Assembly: GCA_051599415.1 (NCBI GenBank)
Contig: AP039694.1
Location: 124,001-188,000 of the forward strand
Reading direction: 5' to 3'
From: Savitreella phatthalungensis
Lineage: Eukaryota
DNA length: 64,000 bases
The position numbers and the translations under genes were made by a program. The notes beneath the pieces were generated by a model. The model was not told where the DNA came from, did not search any database, and saw nothing but the letters and a program-made list of their open reading frames with translations. Positions 12,074 to 58,857 of this stretch are shown piece by piece (within the stretch, counting starts at the first letter, position 1; each line of letters begins with the position of its first letter).

Positions 12074-13390
12074 ATGTTTGCAACATCACTGCTGCTGCTC
12101 CTGATAAATCTATTGCATCGTGCAAAAGCAGACGACATCTTTCGTCAGGTCCAGACAACATGGGCGCTCAGTCGTATTTCGCTGGACCAGTTCCACGGAC
12201 ATGTCGAGCGAACCACATACAATAGTGACCCTCGTAGCTTTCAGTACGTCTATCGGTACAACCGCCGTTACCTCGGGAAGGATACAAACATCTACGTGAT
12301 TGGCGGCGGGGTTGATTGCGATCACGACGAATTCGTCACGCCAGAGGCGAACTCTATCGGACTCCGGACTTTCCGGACTGACTGCAGCGTTCGATCCAAC
12401 TTTGCCTGGAAAGATCTCGGCGGGCAAGAGGACAGACGTGTCAATCTCCACACAGATACCGACGGAATGACTACTTCGCTCGCAGGACTCATTGCCGGTC
12501 GTCGCGTCGGTGTGGCGAGAGAAGCCAGCGTGATCAGTGTCAAAGTCCGCATCGGAAGAGAGCCAGCGTCGCTATCGACCTTAATGGCAGGCTTGAACTG
12601 GATAGTTGATCAGGTGAAACGATCAAGAGCTCAGCGCAGAGACAAACGACATGTAATCTTTCTCCACGCACGTATGATCGCCGCAGATGACGCCTTGGAC
12701 GCGTCCGTGGGTACGCTGATTCGCGTCGGTCTTCACGTCATCGCTGCAGGGTTCCACATGGGTGACAAGTGCGACGAGTCCTCTCCATCTCGCGTAGACA
12801 ATGTCATCAGTGTCGGTCAAACCATGATTAACGACGAATTCTGGCAGGCCGGTAGTGGAACGGGCCAGTGTATCGCCGTTCTAGCACCAGGACATGAGGT
12901 TGCATCCATTGTTGCTGATGAGCCAGGCAAGCTGGTACTAGTCTCTGGCAGCGGTGCTGCGGCTGCATTGACAGCAGGCGTGATATCGACCTGGTTGACT
13001 CAAGGTTCACAAACGCGAGATTTTTCGCCTGAAGAGCTTCGCCACGTCATCACTCAAATGGCTGGCAAGAATGAGATTAACAATGTCCCAAGTGACACCG
13101 CAAATCTTATGTTGCGCAATCGACTCAACCGCGATTGGTCGTATCAGCCTCCGGATTACATCGGTCGAGATGATCGACCAGTAGGAGAAGACTCAGGTCC
13201 TGCAACATCCAGCTCTGTCCATCTGAGACCCGACATTCAATCAGCGCCAGCACGGAAGGACCAGCATCCTGATGGAGGAGTATCGATCGACCCGGCCACC
13301 GTGTCAGAAATGCCCGGTTATTCTGGTAAACCGCGTGTGAGCAGTACAGCTCACAAGAGACCATCGAGCGTCACATCGCCCCTAGCTTGA
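12074..13390 (+). CDS. Secreted subtilisin/proteinase K-like (S8) protein, predicted catalytically inactive; paralog 2
   Basis: Hydrophobic signal peptide MFATSLLLLLINLLHRAKA; WALSRIS, GVAREASVISVKV, SPSRVDNVISVG, LAPGHEV. Triad positions read GGG, GMTT and SGSGAA. S/P-rich tail. Confidence 0.82.
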   Translation: MFATSLLLLLINLLHRAKADDIFRQVQTTWALSRISLDQFHGHVERTTYNSDPRSFQYVYRYNRRYLGKDTNIYVIGGGVDCDHDEFVTPEANSIGLRTFRTDCSVRSNFAWKDLGGQEDRRVNLHTDTDGMTTSLAGLIAGRRVGVAREASVISVKVRIGREPASLSTLMAGLNWIVDQVKRSRAQRRDKRHVIFLHARMIAADDALDASVGTLIRVGLHVIAAGFHMGDKCDESSPSRVDNVISVGQTMINDEFWQAGSGTGQCIAVLAPGHEVASIVADEPGKLVLVSGSGAAAALTAGVISTWLTQGSQTRDFSPEELRHVITQMAGKNEINNVPSDTANLMLRNRLNRDWSYQPPDYIGRDDRPVGEDSGPATSSSVHLRPDIQSAPARKDQHPDGGVSIDPATVSEMPGYSGKPRVSSTAHKRPSSVTSPLA

Positions 13391-23765: not shown

Positions 23766-24779
23766 CTAGTCGAGCCCACTAATGGTGTCCATAATAAACC
23801 GCTTTTCGTCTGCAAACTGCTCATCGTCGTCCTTGCCTTTCTGGAAGTTTCCGAGGTATTCCAGAAGCCGGTCTTTATTCTTCACAAGGATATCTCGCAC
23901 ACCTTGAGATTTGTGCGGATTCGCCACAAATACCTTGAACACCTGGAAAGCCTCGAATTGAATGTGCTGCGATCTATCCTTGAGCAGATTCATCATCAAG
24001 CGCAAATTGGCAGGATCCAAGACGTACCTATGCATGACATCAAAGTTTGACCTTTCGAGAAGGAGCTCACCCAGGAGCTTCAGAGACTGTCGTCGCCAGA
24101 CGTAATTGTCACTCTGGAGGAAGCCGAGGTAAGCTTTGAAAAATGGATCGAAATTGTCGAGCATGAAAGCAGCGGCAAGGTCACGGTGGCGAGTCAACAG
24201 ATCTCGCAAGGTGGAAAATGCGTCTGAGGCGATATCGAAGGTGTTATTCTCGACGTAGTCGAAGTATCGCCATAACTCGGCCTCCTTCGTAGTCCCGCTG
24301 GGACGCATGAGAATTCGCGCAAGCCTCTCATGCTTACAGCACTCTCTGATCATTGGGCCGGTCTGCAAGGCGACCGCAGACTGTTCGTATGCTCTCGATA
24401 ACAGCACCATTGTGTCTTCCTTCGGAGCTAAGTAATCGACTGTCACATACCGTTCCCCGATCTGTCGTCGCAAGAGGCCTGAGAAGAGACTACAGGCATC
24501 CTTACGAGCTCCAAATTCCAGCTTGCCAATTTGCCGGACAAGGAGCGTGAGCAGATCGGTCAGGTAAACCTGCTGAGCGAGCTGCGCAGTCGAGTCAGGA
24601 TCCGGAGCGACCTCAGCATCACCATAATAGATGACCTTCAGCTGAGCGAGCTGTTTCGAAACTTCTTCTAGCGCGGCCTTACGCGAGGACGCACTATCGA
24701 GCTTGACCAATTGAGCGCAGCACGTCGAGACCAGATCCGCAGGCGTCTGCGTCTTCGATCTCGCTCGGAAGAAGTTCAT
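23766..24779 (-). CDS. HYM1: Mo25 / Hym1 scaffold protein
   Basis: FDIASDAFSTL, SDNYVWRRQSLKLLGELLLER, NLRLMMNLL, QFEAFQVFKVFVANP, QFADEK. Confidence 0.95.
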   Translation of the reverse strand: MNFFRARSKTQTPADLVSTCCAQLVKLDSASSRKAALEEVSKQLAQLKVIYYGDAEVAPDPDSTAQLAQQVYLTDLLTLLVRQIGKLEFGARKDACSLFSGLLRRQIGERYVTVDYLAPKEDTMVLLSRAYEQSAVALQTGPMIRECCKHERLARILMRPSGTTKEAELWRYFDYVENNTFDIASDAFSTLRDLLTRHRDLAAAFMLDNFDPFFKAYLGFLQSDNYVWRRQSLKLLGELLLERSNFDVMHRYVLDPANLRLMMNLLKDRSQHIQFEAFQVFKVFVANPHKSQGVRDILVKNKDRLLEYLGNFQKGKDDDEQFADEKRFIMDTISGLD

Positions 24780-26274
24780 TAGAAAGTTTCAGGCGTCGAC
24801 AAAGGCACGATTGCGCGACTTTTCCTGCTGAGCGCGGACTCGTCTGGGAGATAGCTGATGTACTGAAGAGTCAGAATGCCGAATGCAGACGATTGCCGTG
24901 ACCGGAACGGTATCGTGCTGGAAAATCGACCGGCGGGACCACCTGCTTACGCTACGCTGGTATTGCTAGGCAAGAGGAAAGGATCCTTAGCAGTATCAGA
25001 ATTGGTCGGCAGTCCTAAATAATCCTGAACGCCTGATTCTGCCTTCGTTCGCGTTTGTGTCGAGCTCTTCGCCGGTCAAAGTTGGACAAATTTGCGTCAG
25101 CGTTGAGGCAGGCAAGGGTGAAAGCGGATCCGCAGAAGCGCGTGAGAGAGTGCTGAGAAACCCTGCGCGCTTTAATATGCCATGTGAACGAGATAGCGTC
25201 GTGTGGGTGAATGAATTTGATGTTTGATATGGGGGATGGGTGATGAACGACCAGCGTGTGTGTCAGTAACGCATCAGCCTTCACAAAGAGACAAAAATGC
25301 AGAATCTATCGCGAGAGCCCAACGAAGCGAATCGCTTGCCCAGACGACGTCGTAGTCTTCTTCCCTTACAATCCTTGAGGCGTGACGACCATTGTTGACC
25401 TGGCCTCTTTCAAAGCTGCAATGCCATTGAATGGCTCGTACAATGCTTGCTCCAGTTTCAGTTTCAATGCACCGAACTCCAGAGTGTATGATGATGCATA
25501 CGTGCGTACGGTTGAACAATTGCAACGCGGTCAGTAGACGCGGATTTGGTTGAATAATATTATGGTTTCCGTGGTCTGTGCATCCTTTTCATTTTACTTC
25601 GGTATCTGTGCAACCGTTCATGTTTCCAGCTAGACGATCGACCAGGATCGGTTTCAACTGAATTACATCGATGTAAATTTATACTCTGTGTGTGATGTAC
25701 ATGTACGTAGCTCAAAATGAGTCTGTATGATGTCTCGACAAAAACAAGCTGCTTGCACGGGGAAATGTGATGGCGACTGGTCTGGCTGGCTCGATCTATA
25801 GATTCTTGCTTCCCTGTGAAATTACCGTCGGGGTCTGTTCACAGTCATCTAACGATCCTTAACAACGACATGTGTGACTGCAGAGCTTCCAATGGAGTAC
25901 AGTACTCGAATCAATTGTATTGATGTGACGATGCTGCATAAGCTCTTCCACATGGCTTATTTCACCCCTCTGCTTACGACCTGGGAGATTTTCAGTTCAT
26001 CAGGTCCATCATATTGAGCGCTTTTGTAACTGGCAAAGTGATATCGTCCTTCTTCGTTCACGTGAACGGGAACGGGGGGATGTGATGAGGATATATGCGC
26101 AGTGTATATATTCGAACATATGCAAACTCACACTTTCCAATGAGATCGATCGCGTAAATCTGTGCATTGCTGTCCAGATCTACCCGTCCCTGCATTCACA
26201 GATTTCTTATTTCCTTGTGCGTTTCGATGATCGAGCTCCAGGAACTTTCCCATGACAGTTGCAGAACGTCTATG

Positions 26275-28226
26275 CAGTCACAGTCACATAGTGTTTTGTG
26301 GTACCCGCCTGCGTGATCGAGCTGACCTGATACAGAGCTCACGAGCCAGACGCAGTCGTTCCATTGCGTGCTCTCGTAAGTCGTAAGTCTTTTCTCATCA
26401 GACTCCGGCCGAGACCTGTGTTGTCCACCTACCGGGCCATCAGTGCTCTCGCCCTCGGGAACCACAAAAGACCTTTTCTGTCAAGGTCCGTGCTTCTCGG
26501 AGACTCAATTCACTGGATCTACACAGACTGTCTAGTAATCAGCTGGCCGAATATTTGTCACATCGATCCCAGGCTCAACTGCACAGGATCTATTTGTGAC
26601 ACGGTCGCTCATAGTCACAGGCAAGAAAGTCCGACCAGGTCCTTACATTGTCAAGCACGGCCCGCACAGACCTCTGCTCTATCTCAGACCTTTCAACCAA
26701 GGTCACGCAAGGATCTTCGACGTCGTGAACAGGGCAACAGCCGTCATCATATAGTGTTTGCTGCTCAACTGCTTGATTCAGCGTCTACCTCGACCTCGGA
26801 CATTAAGCACTAGATTCTTCACATTGACTGTACCATCTGTTTTCGGGACTGTTTCACGCAAACAACACAAGACAACGCTATTCTACAGTTTCCTCCCGCA
26901 TATCAGCATTCGTCGCTGAAGAATAACGACCTGCAGCAGAAGATTGACGCTGAGGCGGCCTCGGCCATATCCTTTTTAGTACATACTTGCACAGCATCGC
27001 CTCCGGAGAACTCATCCATATCGCGAGAGAGATCCTGATCAGTCGTCAGACTATCTCTTCTGTACAGCATTCCGGCACATACAACACAACACAGCATTGC
27101 ATATATCGCATAAAAGCTTCGTCTCAAACAGGCGCGCTACTCATCTTACTTTCATTTCGAAACATCGAGGAGCTCACGTTGACGTCCCACGTGCCCCTTG
27201 ACGAACGCCTCCACCCACACATATCCTGACAATCTATTTTGATCGTCTCCATCTACCTGGTCCGAAGCTCTCACAGCCTTTTGATTCGATTCAAAGTCAT
27301 CTACTTGAGGCAAGTCGCGTGTCTTTGATTCCTATCATCAAAGACTTGGCTGCTGCCTCACCACGAAACAATCCCCAAAAGAGCAACCTATACGACGCTT
27401 TGAACAGCTGGGCTATCGTGTAAGCACTCATTCACGCCAGGCTATAATAAGTCAATCCCAGTCTGAGCCTAACGAAGGGTCAAAAACGAAACAGAAAGTT
27501 CTCCAGATCCGTGCTGGACTCACCTGTCGACTCGTTATATCACTTGATTTCTCGCGTTAGAGTTCATCTGAGACTCTCTATTTGACACGACCAACGCAAG
27601 CTCATCTCGATCCACGAGTCAGTCAACCAGCTAGCTAGCCAGTCAGTCAGCCAGCCAGCCAGCCCAATCGACCAAACCGCCAGCAAATTTGCGTCCGCAT
27701 CAATAGCATTTGAGCTGGTCGTCTGTCCCCTGACTGAGTTTCTATTTACTCGTTCTATCCCTCTCACTTATTCCACGACTAGGATCATTTCACCTTCTCC
27801 CGAGCCCATTCGCATCACCAATAGGCATTACTCGGCCTTGCAAACAACACACCCTTCAGCTACAACCAGGTGTCGATCCCTTTCTCCAGTTCACTCCTGC
27901 CAATCCTTAATCCTCACTCCATCTAGTCAATATCGTTCACTGTCTGCCGACACATAAAACGATTGATCTAGCCGCCAGCATCCGTCCAAATACACCTGGC
28001 CCTTCTACAGACTGCAGGAGCAAAGTATCAACTGTACACTTCTCTGCGTTGAAGATTTGTTCCATAACAGGTCTTCCAGCTGTTTGTTAAACTCAAGCAA
28101 CAGTTCAAGTTGTACAGTCTCAAAAGCGTGTTGATCTCTCAATCGTCTCCAAAGTACAGCTGAGCTGGTGCCTCTACGCCTTCCCTTTCAATACTCTCAC
28201 AGTCCTAGACATCAAGTTTTCAAATC
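26275..28226 (+). promoter_or_regulatory. Putative very long AUG-free 5' leader of PUF3
   Basis: By manual scan there is no ATG on the + strand between 26272 and the start at 28227, while CAT is frequent. Confidence 0.65.
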
Positions 28227-30680
28227 ATGAGTACAGGACAAGGTAATTGGGGTATTTGGGGCAATGGCCATCCGGCCACACGCTCCTCATCCAACTCCCA
28301 AAACAACACGTCCAAACAGGCTTCAGCAGTGGCAGATGCTTGGCGGTCGAAGCCAACAACGACCGGCGGGAACACGGCCGTGAGCAAGCCTCATAGCACG
28401 TCTCCTGCCGACGTTAGCCGCGTTCCTAGCAACGGCGGCAGCACCGTGCCTGGCAGTGCTTTAAGCAATGCGAAAGGCGGTGATCATGCAAGCAGTACGG
28501 ACATCAATGAGGCAAGCAGTGCTGCCGACCCTTACGACGAAGTGCTCGCAGCGAACGGCAACTCTACCAGGCGTGTTGCATCGCCTGACTCTCTTCGGAC
28601 TGCCAGCCCATTCAACTACATGCTTGACCCCCGTCAGAGACAAGCTACAGCTGCACAAGCGGCTGCTCTCGGTCCTCCTGGTAAGTCACCTAACTCCTCG
28701 TTTCTCGACATCGGTAGCACGAATGCCTCGACAGCCGTCAACCCATCTGGCACCGGCAGCGTCGGCAATTCGGCCACAGAGGGTCTTGTCGCCAAAAGTG
28801 TATTTCACGGCGCGGTCGGGGATGATGGTGGTAGCTATATCGATGACTTAAGTCCGATGCGTGCCAATTCGACACCACCCTATGCAAATCAGAAGCACAT
28901 TGGGCCTGCCGCCGGTGTCGCTAGCAATGGTCCCACAGCCACTTCCTCCTTCTTCAGCCCCCAGATACAGCAACGCGGTCATTTCGATAACACAAAGTCT
29001 GGAAACGATCAAGATCTTGCTACTTCGATGCGCGGCATGTCTCTTCATGATGGTCGTTCAGGTCAGCATCACCTGCAACAAGGTGGATATGGCAGTGGCA
29101 TTTACGCCGGTGCGCCTGCGTATATGCCGCTGGCCGGCTCTCCTGATATCAGTGGCTACAATCCGGGTGCAACACCCTACTATGGGGGTAATCTCGGTCG
29201 CGTCGGTGGTGCAGCGAGTTCATATGATATGTATGGCGGCTCATACGGCGACGCGTACGAGCAGATGTACGGAGGAGCTCCGCGCACTTTCCGATCGCAG
29301 GAAGATCTTGCACGCCTTGCTCGGACTGGTGCGAACATTGGCGGTGAAGGCGGAAGCCGTTTGAGTACGCAGGTCGCATTTGATCGCCGTAGCATGTACC
29401 AACAGCAACAACAGCAGCAACAACTGCTTGTGTCTCAGCAGCATCAGAACTCCCACCAGCAGCAATTTGACTATGGGCGCATGTCCGCTGGTGGCTTTGT
29501 TCCTCCCGGAGCAGCTGGAGCCTTCAGTGGAGGTATCCACAGCCCCGTAGGTGGCGGTGGTTACTATGGTATGCAACAACGCAACCCGTACAGTACAAAC
29601 AGACGCGATGATCCGACAGCCGGTCTTCGCTCCCCACTGCTCGAAGAGTTCCGCCAGAATAAGTCGAAGCGTTATGAACTACGTGACATCATTGGACATG
29701 TCGTCGAATTTTCCGGAGATCAGCATGGCTCACGCTTCATCCAGCAGAAGCTCGAAACTGCCAACAGCGACGACAAGGAGGAGGTTTTCGAGGAACTGTT
29801 ACCCAACTGCCTTCAGCTGATGACAGATGTATTCGGCAACTATGTGATCCAAAAGTTCTTCGAGCATGGTAACCAGGTTCAGAAGACAGTGCTTGCCCAG
29901 AAAATGGAAGGTCACGTCCTTTCGCTCACCTTGCAGATGTACGGTTGCCGAGTCGTGCAGAAGGCACTCGAGCACGTCCTCGCGGAGCAACAAGCAGCCA
30001 TGGTGAAGGAGCTTGACGGCAGCGTACTTAAGTGTGTCAAGGATCAAAATGGCAATCATGTCGTCCAGAAGGCACTTGAGCGTCTCCCGGAAGACAAGCT
30101 TGGCTTTGTCATCGACGCTTTCACTGGGCAAGGCTTCATCCTAGCGACTCACACGTACGGATGCCGCGTCATCCAGCGCCTGCTTGAGCATTGCCAAACC
30201 GCGGGCAACACCGTCCTCGAAGAGCTACACAAGTACACTCAAAATCTTGTGGTCGATCAGTACGGCAATTACGTCTCACAGCACATTATCGAGCATGGCC
30301 GCCCAGCTGACAGATCTCGCGTTATCTCCGTGGTGAAAGGTCAGGTGCTGACACTATCGAAGCACAAGTTCGCGTCCAACGTGGTTGAGAAGTGCATAAC
30401 ATTTGGCACGGCGCAGGAGCGTGCTGAGTTGATCGATGAAGTACTCACATCTACGTCTGAAGGTCAATCAGCGCTCGCAGTACTCATGAAGGATCAGTAC
30501 GGGAATTACGTCCTACAGAAGATGCTTGAGCTTGCAGACCAAGGTCCCCAACGTCAAGAGCTGATTCACAAGATCCGACCGATCCTTGATTCTCTGAAGA
30601 AGTTCTCATACGGCAAGCACCTGTCTTCAATTGAGCGTCTTATTGAAGGACGCGACTCTCGCGACAGGCACTACCGTTAA
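28227..30680 (+). CDS. PUF3: Pumilio-family RNA-binding protein Puf3
   Basis: RSPLLEEFR followed by 8 Puf repeats ([78 protein letters not shown]). Low-complexity/poly-Q N-terminus. Confidence 0.95.
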
Positions 30681-31145: not shown

Positions 31146-31546
31146 GATCGGTACACAAGCAACAATTTGTTTGACCGAGTCTGCAAGCCTCAAAGCTTTT
31201 GAGTGTCTGCAGCACAATAGCTCCTCTTCCGACCCCCCTATCTCGAGAGCGAGGAACTTGGAATATGGATGTTGTCGTCGATTGCTACCCGTAACCTGTA
31301 GCATGACAGATCGAATGATCAGGGCAGAAATTATTCTTTTTCCCGAATCTGCCGGAAGCAAGAATTCCGGCTGATTGCCGGGCTTCAGCGATTGCCTCGA
31401 ACCAGGCATACGGAGAGATCGGTTGAGGAGCAGGAAAAATGCTAGCTTCACGTCCTTAGATCATCCAGACCCCAAGATCATTAGAATAAGTTCATACAAG
31501 ACTGTACATATATATAGGTCTGTGCAGCAGAGTGTGCTGATGCGAC

Positions 31547-39861: not shown

Positions 39862-40578
39862 CAGGTGTCGCAGCACTAGCAGCACTACCACCACCACCAC
39901 CACTTTCACTCACCTCCACCAACAGCACCACCAGCACCACCAGCACCAGCAATTCAGCATCCAGCCCAGCAGCGGCAACAGCAACAGCAACAGCAACCGC
40001 GACTCACTCCCACAGCAGCTTCCAACACCTTCATCCACCAACATCAACCCAATCCATTCAACCACTCGACCGTCATCACACAGCACGCACGTTTGCTCGC
40101 TCGCTCGCACCCATACACACACACACACACACACTTACACACACACGTCCACTCAGATACACGCATACAGGCTCATACGAACACAAACTTGCACGCCCCC
40201 CGCACGTTCTGATCCAAACAAAGGTGTCTTTATATACCAGTCAATATATCGACAGTCGATCGGATTCACCTGAGACTTTCATCTGCGCGACCGCTTCGAC
40301 GACCACCAGCCTTAACGACCACCAGATTTCGCACCACGTCGTCGACAGGCATAGCAACGACACTGGGCGGTAACGGCTAGACTGGCAGCGGCAAGACCAT
40401 TCTGATCTGAAATTACATCTGGCTCCACACATCCTGCTCCGCGACCTTTACAGCTGATTGTAAGCTGTCTGTTGATAGTCCAGAGAATCGCGCCTTCATC
40501 AACGAACGTACCGTCGTCACCACTTCTGCGTCTGCTTTCCCGTCCCACTCGATCTCCTGTCAATCTGACCTGCCATCC
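39862..40578 (+). promoter_or_regulatory. Putative AUG-free, microsatellite-rich 5' leader of GSK3
   Basis: No + strand ATG from 39862 to 40578. Contains CAC/CAG triplet runs (~39874-40000) and (CA)n (~40115-40146). Confidence 0.55.
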
Positions 40579-42184: not shown

Positions 42185-43834
42185 TCACCCGGTGGTGAGG
42201 TTACCGAGTGATTCTGTAGCGGCGTGTACGGCATCACCGTTCTTGGTCGCCCATGCGGGAGCGCCAGAACCCGAAGCTGCACCAGCAGCTGCCTTCTTGG
42301 ACGACGACGCAGATGCAGACGAGGCGTCAGCGGACGATGGAGCTCCTTCCTGCTGCTGTTCGGCAAGCTTGGTCTTCTCGTACGCGGCTTCCGCAGCATC
42401 GATCTCCTTCTGAGCCTTTGCCGTCTTCCTGGCCGTCTCCTCGGCCTCGTGGTCCTTGAACCACTGCAGCCTCGTCTTGAGGTCGGTGGTGGCGCGAGGG
42501 ACGTCAGTGGCGTTCATCGGTGGGGATACGCCCACGAGACCAAGATCCTGGATGGTGCCGAGTGACAGGTTGAATTTGGAATCCGTAGCGGCGCTGCTAG
42601 ACTTCTGACCTTTGTTCTTCTTCGACTTGCCTCCTGCAAAGTAGGCCACCTCGTCCTGGCGATCCTTCTTTGATGCCAATGCGACACCTTCAGGTGCGGC
42701 CTCGACAGTACGCTTCTCGAGTGTCTTTCCACCTGTGAAGCTGCGTGCGAATGTGGACTGTTCGTCGGCGGAACCGCCTGAAGAGGCGTTGGGTCCGGCA
42801 GAGGGGTCAAAGTAACGGATCAGATTCTGGCAAGTGAGGATCTGGAGAGCATACGCGGGCTCCTTGGCAGCGTCGAGCTTCTCCTTCGCTGCGTCGAGCC
42901 GTTTCTGCTTCTCCTCCTGCTCGCGCTGCTGCTTGATCGAGTCAAAGCGCTTCTGACGCTGCTCGCGGGAGTACTCATACGCCTGCTTCTTTTGTGTGTA
43001 GTAGTTGTCCTTGAGCTGCTTGAGCTGTGTGTAGGCGTCGTTTCGCTTCTGCTGAAGATTGTCACGCTCAGCGTAGAGCTCCTTACGGCCCTTGAACACC
43101 ACATCCTGCTCACCGCGCAACTTGTCGAGCTCAGCCTTGATAGCGTCGTAGCGAGCAGAAAGCTTCTTATTGCCCTCTTCGTCGATCTGCTTGCGGAGCT
43201 CAGCCACCTTGGCACGGTCAGCCTCGATCGAGCCTTGGGCACCGTCTGCCTCGGCAAACAGCTTCCGCTGACGCTTGAGCTGAGAGACCTCCTGCAACGC
43301 CTTCTTCTCCTCCACTAGCTTGAGTGAGCCTGATGCGACGGCGTCTTCAAGACGCTTGACCTCGGCATCCAGCTCACCCACCGACTTGAAAGAGGATTTC
43401 TTCTTGCTGGCCTGAGACTCTGTGATTTTGCGCTTGATCGAGTCGTCGAGTTGCTTGACCTGCTCGAACACTTTCGCCTTGGAGCCCTTGATCGATGCCT
43501 GCTTCGATCGGATCTCCTCCAGCTCCTTCTTGAGCTCGGCGGTTCGGGAGTTGCCAGTGGCTCCGTCGGCACTGCCACCAATCTTTGCACGGACAGCCTC
43601 TAGCTTCGAAGTGATGGACTTGAGCTCAGCTTCGGCCTTGGCCAAGTTCTTGTTGAACTCTTGCTCGTCAGGCTTTGTAACGCGAGCTGTTGATGAACCA
43701 TTGCCATTGCTAGAGTTCGGGGCTGCTGCTGATGAGGAATCCTTGTTGTTGCTATTGCTCTTGCTCTGAGCAGCAGCAGCACCAGCAGCACCAGCAGGGG
43801 CGGCTTTTGTTGAGCCGTTTGTGGCAGCAGACAT
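42185..43834 (-). CDS. BFR1: Nuclear segregation / mRNP protein Bfr1 (coiled coil)
   Basis: KPDEQEF, FKSVGELDAEVKRLE...SGSLKLVEEKKALQEVSQL, AKEPAY...CQNLIRYF, YFAGGKSKK. First ATG at 43834. Confidence 0.8.
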   Translation of the reverse strand: MSAATNGSTKAAPAGAAGAAAAQSKSNSNNKDSSSAAAPNSSNGNGSSTARVTKPDEQEFNKNLAKAEAELKSITSKLEAVRAKIGGSADGATGNSRTAELKKELEEIRSKQASIKGSKAKVFEQVKQLDDSIKRKITESQASKKKSSFKSVGELDAEVKRLEDAVASGSLKLVEEKKALQEVSQLKRQRKLFAEADGAQGSIEADRAKVAELRKQIDEEGNKKLSARYDAIKAELDKLRGEQDVVFKGRKELYAERDNLQQKRNDAYTQLKQLKDNYYTQKKQAYEYSREQRQKRFDSIKQQREQEEKQKRLDAAKEKLDAAKEPAYALQILTCQNLIRYFDPSAGPNASSGGSADEQSTFARSFTGGKTLEKRTVEAAPEGVALASKKDRQDEVAYFAGGKSKKNKGQKSSSAATDSKFNLSLGTIQDLGLVGVSPPMNATDVPRATTDLKTRLQWFKDHEAEETARKTAKAQKEIDAAEAAYEKTKLAEQQQEGAPSSADASSASASSSKKAAAGAASGSGAPAWATKNGDAVHAATESLGNLTTG

Positions 43835-47697: not shown

Positions 47698-50274
47698 TCA
47701 CCCGGCCGAAGGCACTGTCGAGTACGCGCTCACTGATACACTGATCTTGCCAATCAGATCTGCAGGAGAGAATGGCGAAGTCGTTTGACCATCGTCAGCG
47801 TCGTAGTCAAAGTCACTATACAGTTGCGCGTTCTCGTGATCATCGTAGGTGTGAGGAAGAGTGGAGATCGATAACTGCTCAACAATGGCTGCCTCGTCGA
47901 CATCGGGTTGGGCCACCTTGATCGATGTGGGTGTAAGCTTGCGGACGATATTGAGCGGTGGCGTTTCTGCACGATCGAGCCAGGTCGGAGGGTGGCTCGA
48001 TCGCGCAGCTCGAGCGACGAGACGAGCGAGCGGTGTGATGATGTGCGGTTGACCTGGGAACCTTACAGGCGAAAGCTTTTGGCCATCAGCTCGACACACG
48101 ATAGATCGTTCTTCACAGTCCCTGATCTGTGGAGGTCGAGGTTTGGAAAATTCAGCACTGACCTCACTGGCGCCATCTTCAAGCCATCGCCGAAGATAAG
48201 CACCATTATCACTGGCAAGAGGCGTTCCCGAATGGCGACGAAATTCGCGAGGTGCAGTTTCTTTCACGGATGCCAATCGTGTAGCTCTCAGCAGAGATGA
48301 TTGGCTGGAAGCGCGGTTGAGTTTGTCATTCAATCTGCGTTGCAGAGAGGTACCCCTAGTATCAGTCGGTGAGACTCGCGAATCCCGGTCCTTTCGGAGA
48401 GATTTCTCGTCATCATCCGTTCGCCACGATCGTAAGTCTGTTTCCGGATTCCCATGCCCGCGCTCAGCTTCCAATGCTGACCATAGAGTCTGCGCTGGAT
48501 CGACAAATGGATCATCGAGAAATGGTTGATAGGTTCGAGGCTGCTTTTGTCGACGGCGATAGGCTAGGTAACGCTGATCAGTGGACTCGCTCGAATGTCG
48601 TTTACTGAGGTCGGTCGATCCATGATGAAGCTTAAAAGTGCGTGATTCTGGTCTCACCGTTCTATCCGGATCTGTGGCGCCAACCATCCCAATGTGCTCT
48701 GATCTGCTGAGATAGGGGTTGCCGTGATGTTTCTTTGACGGCGCAGGTGGATTGACAGCTGTCTGTGCGCTTGAGCGGCTAGACGCAGTGGCCGCGATGA
48801 TGCTTGACATTCGGCTCAGTAATGATGCTGATGCTGTCAGCGGTCCGCCTAGCACTTTCTCTATTTGGCTCATATGGAGCTGCAAATACTTAAACACGGT
48901 GAGTGCGTCGGCGCACAGACTTGATCCAGATTTGAGTGCCTGACTTAGCTCGTGCTCGGCTTCCAGCATTGCGTCCAGCAGCTCTTGACGAGGTTTGAGT
49001 GAAGGCAAGCACCGCTGAACCTCACACGCTGTTGTCCGAGCAAAATGCATCAAATGACGGAGGATAAGATCGACATCGGATTCGAAAACGAACCCTGATA
49101 TCCTTTTGAGCTTCAAGTCAAAGGCCGGCAGAACTATACGCGCACCCTCTTGCAAGAAAGGGTGACTGTAACTGATTTCATATGCCAGCACACGTGCCGG
49201 CTCACTCATCACCATATCGTGCAGACGGGACGTGCTCCATGCCGGTGTCGTATTTGGAGGATTATTCGCTGGAGATCCTGAAGGACCGCTCGGCAACAGC
49301 AGCCGATAGAATCGTGAAAGTTCCTCAAACGCACCAAGTCGTGGCACCTTCACTACTAAGGGCCGTGGCAATGTCTTCTCTGCAAATTGCGTAGGACGAA
49401 GAATGTCGACACCGGCAGCGAGGTAAATCTCGAGTCGGACGTCTCTCGCGGGTAGCGGTCTCATGCCTGGTCTCGAATACCGCACGTAAGTGCCCATGAG
49501 GTCGATGGAATGCAGCAAGCAACCTCGCTCACTTGCGTGAGCTAATTTTTGCAAGATCTCAAGATGGGCCAAAGGACCTAATGCTATGCAGTCTGTGTGA
49601 TGCGTGGTACCAATGTCTGACACGCGATTCATCACGTCTCTCGTGATTGCGAATCCGTCTGTGATGAAGAGCAGAATTGTTTGAGTCCACTCTGCGCCGT
49701 TACGATGCTGTTTGGGCTTCACACAGCTCTCAACAATATTCAAGAGGTTGCGTGACCTTTCGTGTGTGTCAATGCTTGCGTCCGTCGTATTGTATGGCAA
49801 TACTGACCGAAGTCTCTTGAGTACCGTCTTTGGATCTGTCAAGTACGTTCTCCTCATCAGACGATGCTTGTACATATTTGAAAACGAGCCATAGATTGAG
49901 AGGGTATCCGCAAGATCAAGCTCATTGCAAAGATTGCTCACGGCATCGAAGCAGTGGTCAAGCATAACGCGTCCAGGCGACTCCGCGTCAAGAATAATGT
50001 TGATGGCCACCGGATTGCACCAAATGGAGTCTTTCCTCTTTTCCGCCAAGACGTGACAGGTAGCCCTGAGCTCGACATCGACTGAGCACTCAAGTGTAGT
50101 GACGATGGTGTTGCTGCTGAGGATAGTGGATTCGAGTGCAAGGCGTTGTTCTCCGTGAGGGACTTTGTTGGGCGACAATTTATGTGCTGATTTGGGAGGG
50201 CTACTAATGTGCTCCCAAAGTTTGCGAATAGGACTGACAGCAGTAGTGAGCGGCTTCTTGGTCGGAATGACCAT
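47698..50274 (-). CDS. Hypothetical protein with a degenerate VWA-like domain and a disordered C-terminus
   Basis: 858-aa ATG-initiated ORF. AINIILDAES, ILLFITDG and CIALG...LEILQKLAH resemble a von Willebrand A fold. Confidence 0.6.
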   Translation of the reverse strand: MVIPTKKPLTTAVSPIRKLWEHISSPPKSAHKLSPNKVPHGEQRLALESTILSSNTIVTTLECSVDVELRATCHVLAEKRKDSIWCNPVAINIILDAESPGRVMLDHCFDAVSNLCNELDLADTLSIYGSFSNMYKHRLMRRTYLTDPKTVLKRLRSVLPYNTTDASIDTHERSRNLLNIVESCVKPKQHRNGAEWTQTILLFITDGFAITRDVMNRVSDIGTTHHTDCIALGPLAHLEILQKLAHASERGCLLHSIDLMGTYVRYSRPGMRPLPARDVRLEIYLAAGVDILRPTQFAEKTLPRPLVVKVPRLGAFEELSRFYRLLLPSGPSGSPANNPPNTTPAWSTSRLHDMVMSEPARVLAYEISYSHPFLQEGARIVLPAFDLKLKRISGFVFESDVDLILRHLMHFARTTACEVQRCLPSLKPRQELLDAMLEAEHELSQALKSGSSLCADALTVFKYLQLHMSQIEKVLGGPLTASASLLSRMSSIIAATASSRSSAQTAVNPPAPSKKHHGNPYLSRSEHIGMVGATDPDRTVRPESRTFKLHHGSTDLSKRHSSESTDQRYLAYRRRQKQPRTYQPFLDDPFVDPAQTLWSALEAERGHGNPETDLRSWRTDDDEKSLRKDRDSRVSPTDTRGTSLQRRLNDKLNRASSQSSLLRATRLASVKETAPREFRRHSGTPLASDNGAYLRRWLEDGASEVSAEFSKPRPPQIRDCEERSIVCRADGQKLSPVRFPGQPHIITPLARLVARAARSSHPPTWLDRAETPPLNIVRKLTPTSIKVAQPDVDEAAIVEQLSISTLPHTYDDHENAQLYSDFDYDADDGQTTSPFSPADLIGKISVSVSAYSTVPSAG

Positions 50275-57700: not shown

Positions 57701-58857
57701 CAGGGAGACACACGCACCCATACTCACTCCCACATCCGCTTCCACTTCCACATCCACTTCCACATCTACATCCACATCCACATCCGCACAGACGTACGCG
57801 CACGGGATCAGCACTCCAGTCACTCTCTCTCTCTACCCAGTCAATCACTCACTCACTCAGTTACTCTCTGACTCAATCGCTCTCCCAGACGCGTATCCAT
57901 CCCAGTCTCCACCTCCTGCCAGACGATCTCTGCCTGCGTTGCCTGCTGTCTGCCTGCCAGCAAGCAATACCCGATCATCGTCAATCTGACGAACGATCGA
58001 TCGAACGAACCCTTTCCAAGCTGGCGATCCAGTCCAGTCGAATCCAATCCAATCCAATCGAATCCACATCGATCGATTGAGTCAGACCTCCTCTTCCATC
58101 GATCGCAATTCACGCACAAACACCCGAGCGCACGCGCCAACAATCACCATCTATCCATCCATCCATCCATCTATCTATCTATCCATCCATCCAGCAGGAA
58201 ACTGATTCACTCACTCTCTCCAACCATCCATCTCTTTCACTCTACCGATCATTCCCCACCAACCTGTCGCTGCAGGAACTTCCATCTCGAACAAGCTACA
58301 CACACTGTGCTGACACACTTACACTCTCACTCACACTCACGCACACGTCCATCCACCATCCATCACTCCACTCAGGGCTCCACTATCTTCCACTCTCTAT
58401 AGTCTCCGATTCATCCTCCTTCGAACAAGCACTCTTGCTCTCCTTCCACCTCAAACTCAACAATTACTCCACCTTGCGAACAGTTTTCAACCCTCCAAAT
58501 CTTCCACCAACGCAAAACGCGATTCCCAGATATTCGATCAACCTCAGGCGTAGCGCAAGCACTCTCATAGCCTCACGCATCACTCAAAGATTAACAAAAG
58601 ACGCGATCATCGGCATCTTTTCACTTCGCGCTTGCATCGCAACAAAACATTACTCTAATCCACTTCTGATTCAGAGCGCAGTCACTCTCTCAGCGCTCAG
58701 ACAGGACGAAAGTACGAGGCACGCTTGGAGAAGATCCCAATTGATCCTGACTATCCATTCGGCGGCTAGCCAAGACTCCGAGGCCCCATTAGCGAGATCG
58801 AGCAATCTACACGGTTGACCTCGTCTCCCTCAGCTCAAATCCAAAACACGTCACATC
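57701..58857 (+). promoter_or_regulatory. Putative AUG-free, C/A-rich 5' leader of TUP1 with hexa- and tetranucleotide repeats
   Basis: No + strand ATG after 57698 until 58858. CCACAT/CCACTT repeats ~57730-57786; ATCC/ATCT repeats ~58148-58192. Confidence 0.6.

Follow-up and report, generated by a model that had tools for sequence, protein, structure and literature searches.

The window analysed here comprises 64,000 nt of Savitreella phatthalungensis contig AP039694.1 (positions 124,001 to 188,000 of the forward strand, assembly GCA_051599415.1), in which a PUF3 gene and a Mo25-like gene lie head to head across an interval of 3447 nt, the second largest upstream interval among the 292 ORFs considered on contig C6 (Table 1). 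The genome is compact (12.7 Mb in 27 contigs), apparently intron-poor and of presumed Taphrinomycotina affinity. Three long ORFs of the window have no Pfam match: 42185-43834 (549 aa) and 47698-50274 (858 aa) on the minus strand, and 12074-13390 (438 aa) on the plus strand.

The RNA-contact motifs of the PUF repeats (SRFIQ, NYVIQ, CRVVQ, NHVVQ, CRVIQ, NYVSQ, SNVVE and NYVLQ) align with those of human PUM2. A PDB search with the protein returned PUM2 and PUM1 as top matches, with Puf3p (E 2e-88) ranking ahead of Puf4 (1e-54) and also of Mpt5. In a tree of 27 rows the protein falls among the fungal Puf3 orthologues, a clade of 23 rows with a support of 97/91; its nearest neighbours are three proteins inside an ascomycete group with Saitoella, and two PUF paralogues of the genome lie outside the clade on very long, poorly placed branches. 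Set beside fungal Puf3 and metazoan Pumilio as described in excerpts of the literature and in structures (PMC4654594; PDB 3gvo, 1ib2, 3k49), the protein has the same eight repeats and PUM2-like contacts, and nothing about it is unusual. Its N-terminal WGIW motif is common to P0002 and P0003, two of the closest proteins. Because this N-terminus is conserved, the context of the ATG at 28227 scores above the median of 92 reference starts (1.13 versus 0.87) and a TAG in the same frame lies only 7 codons upstream (28206), the ATG at 28227 is, judged by its sequence, the true PUF3 start codon.

Table 1. Features of the PUF3 locus, in coordinates of the window, with the basis of each assignment.
Feature	Position	Strand	Basis
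Divergent Mo25-like gene	23766..24779	-	PF08569, E 6.7e-122
TG-rich zone between two divergent AUG-free stretches; putative promoter shared by PUF3 and the Mo25-like gene	25181..26274	.	composition
Predicted transcription start interval (composition change point)	26087..26508	+	GC skew and dinucleotide model
TATA-like element TGTATATAT, which also fits the Puf3 element consensus	26103..26113	+	motif match
Four weak-context ATGs (26140, 26227, 26252, 26272) with short frames ending by 26386	26140..26386	+	context scores -1.7, -1.5, -0.02, -1.3
ATG-free C-rich stretch, putative 5' leader of the PUF3 mRNA	26275..28226	+	0 ATG versus 20.3 +/- 3.6 expected
Candidate upstream frame of 65 codons, opened by the near-cognate ACG of best context and stopping within the leader	27363..27560	+	context score 2.86
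Candidate 75-nt intron (GTAAGC ... CTAAC ... CAG), in-frame within the ACG frame	27420..27494	+	consensus match
(CAGY)n microsatellite within the leader	27617..27664	+	repeat scan
PUF3/Pumilio orthologue, 817 aa, eight PUF repeats, unbroken frame	28227..30680	+	PF00806, E 2.9e-77, 8 stretches

Between the flanking ATGs at 26272 and 28227, a machine count finds no ATG in 1952 nt of the plus strand, which bears out the original prediction of a stretch of about 1,950 nt without one before the PUF3 start. The gap ends exactly at the PUF3 start codon, the first ATG of the frame with the conserved N-terminus. The accompanying estimate that about 30 ATGs should have occurred was too high, because the stretch is poor in G (18.5%, against 30% C); it is TG-poor and CA-rich, and the expectation is thereby reduced to about 20 (1000 dinucleotide-preserving shuffles, minimum 11). 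The reverse triplet CAT is as common as had been claimed, with 45 occurrences versus 45.7 expected from dinucleotide shuffles of the same stretch. ATG alone of the 64 triplets is absent, the next lowest ratio of observed to expected being 0.55, and CTG, TTG and ATA are over-represented (1.37-1.49), which partly follows from the null model. The Poisson probability of finding no ATG is about 1.5e-9, or about 3e-5 once some 22,000 ATG intervals (an assumed figure for both strands of the contig) are allowed for. The sequence is otherwise of ordinary complexity, as stated before, except for the short (CAGY)n repeat.

To what extent the gap stands out can be judged from contig C6 (650,743 nt with 292 non-overlapping ORFs of at least 200 aa). 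The ATG-free distance upstream of these ORFs has a median of 94 nt, reaches at least 300 nt in 30 and at least 1000 nt in three of the 292 cases, and at least 1500 nt at PUF3 alone; in the CAT control, a single case of the 292 reaches 300 nt, with a maximum of 305. Each of the contig's four longest ATG gaps stops where a long ORF begins. Those next after PUF3 precede TUP1 (1157 nt), a C2H2 protein (1146 nt), an MFS transporter (853 nt) and a kinase (717 nt), and gaps of 550-630 nt precede fumarase and other non-regulators. The TUP1 gap (57701-58857, plus strand; the gene encodes Tup_N and WD40 domains) opens with a very sharp switch to C-rich sequence at 57709, and the kinase gap (39862-40578, plus strand) has its change of skew at 39874. 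The TUP1 gap also holds 13 matches to CNYUCNYU versus 5.2 expected, in part due to (CACT)n and (CCAT)n repeats.

In a second sample, 228 kb that were fetched around chosen loci and are thus not random, gaps of at least 800 nt precede genes for a PKA regulatory subunit (1341 nt; L199, minus strand), a homeobox protein (1175 nt; L189, minus strand), a cyclin (1114 nt; L215, plus strand), an APSES protein (908 nt; L211, plus strand) and a DUF1688 protein (829 nt), and three further gaps of this size end at a short upstream frame. The PUF3 gap is the longest within the roughly 0.88 Mb surveyed, about 7% of the genome, and the next-longest gaps (0.9-1.3 kb) mostly lie before regulators. Long ATG gaps are concentrated on regulators, yet they are not general to them, because only 2 of 15 purposely fetched regulator-family genes reach 900 nt and 7 of the 15 stay below 200 nt. 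Upstream of the other PUF genes, of which there are three, the ATG-free distance is 124, 104 and 100 nt, and it is 249 nt upstream of the Gti1/Wor1-family gene of the genome. At the RRM-bearing PUF paralogue, an ATG-free run of 844 nt (L157, 2128-2971, plus strand) is followed by one ATG with a three-codon frame, 100 nt before the start; at this locus the switch to C/A-rich sequence is closely preceded by a (GAGT)n tract.

The upstream end of the PUF3 gap coincides with a change in base composition. The plus strand turns from an absence of GC skew to C>G with a best change point at 26123 (range 26087-26426, skew alone), and a dinucleotide model, which was trained on 19 other gaps and is therefore partly circular, places the boundary at 26332 (range 26294-26508). 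At TUP1 and the kinase gene in the same window, the change of skew and the beginning of the ATG gap are no more than about 12 nt apart, and at a C2H2 gene the gap starts at the edge of the change-point range. A C>G skew near transcription start sites has been reported for fungi in the part of PMC555766 consulted. On the far side of the boundary, 25180-26274 has no GC skew and contains 37 ATGs, so that the earlier description of this zone as ATG-rich stands as a count; it does not amount to a special enrichment, because the TG-rich composition already predicts 31.5. The Mo25-like gene has its own AUG-free stretch of 401 nt (24780-25180, minus strand). With AUG-free runs on opposite strands on either side, 25181-26274 is left as a plausible promoter shared by the two genes. 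The TATA-like element in it is more likely promoter DNA, because it lies upstream of or at the predicted transcription start.

These features very probably reflect a PUF3 mRNA with a scanned 5' leader of about 1.7-2.1 kb, from which AUGs have been purged by selection. The strand specificity of the depletion, its end at the start codon, the composition change at 26.1-26.5 kb, the similar gaps before other regulators and those at other Puf3 loci all fit the very long, AUG-selected 5' UTR that the original prediction had starting near 26.3 kb, a reading that is drawn from sequence features. Transcription would start at about 26.1-26.5 kb, from the promoter shared with the Mo25-like gene, and most of the leader would be kept in the mature mRNA, because spliced-out sequence would tolerate ATGs. 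Initiation by scanning is an established mode, and the small ribosomal subunit would load at the cap and scan the whole of the weakly structured, C-rich leader as far as the AUG at 28227. A new AUG anywhere on this path would open a short upstream frame that captures scanning subunits, cuts Puf3 synthesis and exposes the mRNA to nonsense-mediated decay; because any new AUG would lower Puf3 output, selection would remove AUGs over the full length of the leader. The completeness of the purging thus disfavours a large intron, internal entry or shunting, since unscanned sequence could keep its AUGs. The length of the leader would either regulate translation or be the mere product of a distant start site.

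Several published observations bear on the proposed leader, as far as the excerpts of these sources go. Upstream AUGs lower translation and trigger nonsense-mediated decay in Cryptococcus (PMC7049704), and AUG-like triplets are in excess in purged 5' UTRs (PMC7889888). It should be noted that for Schizosaccharomyces pombe, a relative, long AUG-rich leaders have been described (PMC7049704), which counts against the leader reading.

A tentative variant, which we regard as possible and rather unlikely, would have transcription start just below the TATA-like element (about 26125-26150), either always or in a second isoform. The leader would then measure about 2.1 kb and have three or four weak upstream ORFs at its beginning, followed by the AUG-free 1.9 kb as a spacer that is scanned after leaky scanning or reinitiation. 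The position of the TATA-like element, the best skew change point at 26123, the weak context of all four ATGs at 26140-26272 and the one to three upstream ATGs that are kept in related leaders speak for this variant. However, weak context does not single out the four ATGs, because those upstream of 26140 likewise score weakly, the dinucleotide model places the boundary downstream of them, the skew change coincides with the start of the gap at TUP1 and the kinase gene, and no peptide similarity with related leaders is found. Only a transcription start ahead of the four ATGs would make upstream ORFs of their frames. The frames of 29 aa and 44 aa that begin at these ATGs have no Pfam match. The frame at 26227-26316 (plus strand), which can begin at either 26227 or 26272, ends in Pro-Pro-Ala-stop, and no conservation was found for it; some upstream ORFs end in proline-rich stalling stretches, to which this end bears a loose likeness.

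Whether a leader free of AUGs extends to related Puf3 genes was examined in 80 metagenome loci, 28 of which have at least 600 nt upstream of an in-frame ATG. Six of the 28 were dropped because the start could not be placed, the frame being cut just before the PUF match. Among the remaining 22, nine show a depletion of ATG (P <= 0.01, assessed on up to 800 nt); these are seven distinct loci, as two pairs look like duplicates. The other 13 are not depleted at this level, which argues against the leader reading; in several of them the start is doubtful, the branch is long or the origin seems non-fungal, this last presumably so by their likeness to plant proteins. Four of the loci combine a C>G skew with few upstream ATGs: L053 (1 in 820 nt, 7.2 expected), L091 (1 in 768 nt, 9.4 expected), L038 (3 in 1138 nt, 12.7 expected) and L025 (1 in 627 nt, 7.7 expected). 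These four look like assembled transcripts with leaders of 0.6-1.1 kb or more, because their PUF-domain frames are unbroken while those of L073 and L080 are interrupted. AUG-poor regions thus recur in this comparison, and to a smaller extent, the longest ATG-free run among 24 profiled related loci being 771 nt versus 1952 nt at PUF3 here. The leader sequence itself has no similarity to 13 related upstream regions (best E 0.06). Two Pezizomycotina Puf3 leaders, L038 (804-825) and L033 (40-61), have in common a stretch of 22 nt (95% identity) that immediately precedes a short upstream ATG, and they are unalignable elsewhere.

A broader proposal is that fungal PUF3 mRNAs have carried a long AUG-poor leader since ancient times, that the architecture of this leader is conserved and its sequence is not, and that it serves translational control of a master regulator of mRNAs; in S. 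phatthalungensis the leader would be 2.1 kb long, with weak upstream ORFs near the 5' end and the ACG frame in the middle, which would tie Puf3 synthesis to scanning capacity and the stringency of start codon selection. We consider this proposal doubtful.

The putative leader was searched for content of its own. A hidden gene was rejected: the longest stop-free frame has 160 codons (P 0.18 in shuffles), codon usage is negative, that is non-coding, in all seven long frames, no ATG-started or long antisense frame lies within the gap, five frames gave no Pfam match, a frame of 83 codons found no homologue in a database search, and the 160-codon frame reached an atlas score of 0.75, which is below the lead level. 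The original prediction had envisaged RNA structures, near-cognate upstream ORFs and autoregulatory elements in the leader, and none of the three found support. An Rfam search of the leader found no family (best match at the chance level of E 0.81) and a tRNA search found none. Folding gave z <= -2.4 in 5 of 40 windows, the best being -3.0 (40 shuffles per window), and when three of these five windows were refolded at 141 nt the values were -0.95 (for the best), -1.96 and -1.57, so that a structured cis-regulatory RNA or IRES was discarded for want of a family or a robust local structure. The Puf3 element consensus UGUA[ACU]AUA, as given in PMC4654594, does not occur in the PUF3 leader or coding sequence; it occurs nearby at 26103, on the promoter side, and at 31503, 823 nt past the stop codon, and 11 of 222 genes on C6 carry it within 900 nt after the gene. 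The motif CNYUCNYU, which we take to be of the Ssd1 type, was likewise rejected (5 matches in the leader versus 5.4 expected). The (CAGY)n repeat looks like a genome-wide habit of leaders and not like a PUF3 element: among 18 arrays of at least six units in the genome (L188-L204 and the one in the PUF3 leader), 11 are sense-oriented and have no more than one ATG between them and the next long ORF, and 17 of 17 fetched arrays lie outside long ORFs. The genes that follow such AUG-poor stretches include XRN1, a RhoGEF, a C2H2 protein and a ubiquitin hydrolase.

It is improbable that the AUGs were purged so that a weak start can sense initiation stringency through a functional non-AUG upstream ORF, for which the ACG at 27363 is the most plausible candidate. 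This ACG has the best context among the CTG, GTG, TTG and ACG codons of the leader, its frame stops inside the leader, and the frame holds the in-frame intron candidate. Nevertheless, its score lies within the shuffle expectation (at least 2 in 2 of 27 ACGs versus 5% +/- 4% in shuffles), and the leader has neither an excess nor a clear deficit of near-cognate codons in strong context. The codon usage of the frame is -0.14, compared to +0.17 to +0.26 for the genes of the genome, it has neither a homologue nor a Pfam match, and contig C6 has no excess of the intron-consensus pattern (79 real versus 104 in the shuffle). Upstream ORFs of the AZIN1/ODC type encode a conserved peptide from a non-AUG start, and no similar peptide was found in the 13 related upstream regions, which come from distant relatives.

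Still less probable is an effect at the DNA level, be it chance, mutational bias, promoter composition, a large intron or a separate non-coding RNA, in which case the real leader would be short. The TG-poor, CA-rich composition lowers the expected ATG count to about 20 instead of about 30, and donor-like GTAAGT sites are present at 26376 and 26383. However, no dinucleotide shuffle fell below 11 ATGs, and a loss of TG fails to explain the gap because CTG and TTG are in excess. There is no known reason why an intron or a separate non-coding RNA should lack ATG on one strand alone, the latter has neither an Rfam nor a tRNA match, and the gap stops exactly at the start codon. Internal entry, shunting or a non-AUG extension of the Puf3 N-terminus is very improbable, in spite of the link of internal entry to long fungal leaders of other genes in the excerpts of PMC4552353 and PMC6034079, as most of the leader would then escape scanning and could gain AUGs, no robust structure was found in it, and the TAG at 28206 rules out any unspliced extension of more than 6 codons.

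The long scanned PUF3 leader has counterparts among fungal regulators. The leader of Candida albicans WOR1 is described as 1997 bp long, is stated to be without AUG-started upstream ORFs and was shown to lower translation (excerpt of PMC4552353), and its length is given as 2,978 nt in PMC6034079. The two cases share a leader of about 2 kb on a fungal regulator and the lack of AUG-started upstream ORFs; they differ in that WOR1 encodes a transcription factor of a Saccharomycotina yeast and has a mapped leader, whereas PUF3 encodes an RNA-binding protein in another lineage and its leader is predicted from sequence. Leaders of 1.1-3 kb are likewise given for C. albicans UME6, CZF1 and EFG1 in the portion of PMC6034079 consulted, so that long leaders are concentrated on regulators there as they are here on TUP1 and the genes for the PKA regulatory subunit, the homeobox, C2H2 and APSES proteins and the cyclin. 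In the C. albicans genes repressive or stimulatory elements have been tested, and none was identified in the PUF3 leader. The depletion follows the same statistic as that described for eukaryotic 5' UTRs in the excerpt of PMC7889888 (a ratio of observed to expected that is below 1 relative to dinucleotide shuffles, and an excess of AUG-like triplets); that depletion is a genome-wide average, and the one at PUF3 is complete over 1952 nt, compared to the median of 94 nt on C6. A limited literature search found no description of a long PUF3 leader, with 5' phrases not searchable as printed and supplementary leader annotations outside its scope, and it returned nothing relevant on UTRs of Taphrinomycotina.

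The PUF3 leader thus most likely belongs, as an extreme case, to a pattern that fungal regulator genes are known to show. Its ATG gap is the longest in the part of the genome surveyed, as the original prediction of an exceptional leader would have it, and the leader is less exceptional than was claimed, because leaders of the size of WOR1 without AUG-started upstream ORFs have been published. No known rule is changed, as both the depletion of AUGs in 5' UTRs and AUG-free leaders of 2 kb are already in the literature. If confirmed, PUF3 would join the fungal regulators that are read from kilobase leaders, and it would be a clean natural test case for the distance that a ribosome can scan and for the reasons why long leaders are retained on regulators. 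In addition, strand-specific ATG gaps may be used, with nothing but the sequence of this compact, intron-poor genome, to find long leaders, true start codons and likely regulator genes.
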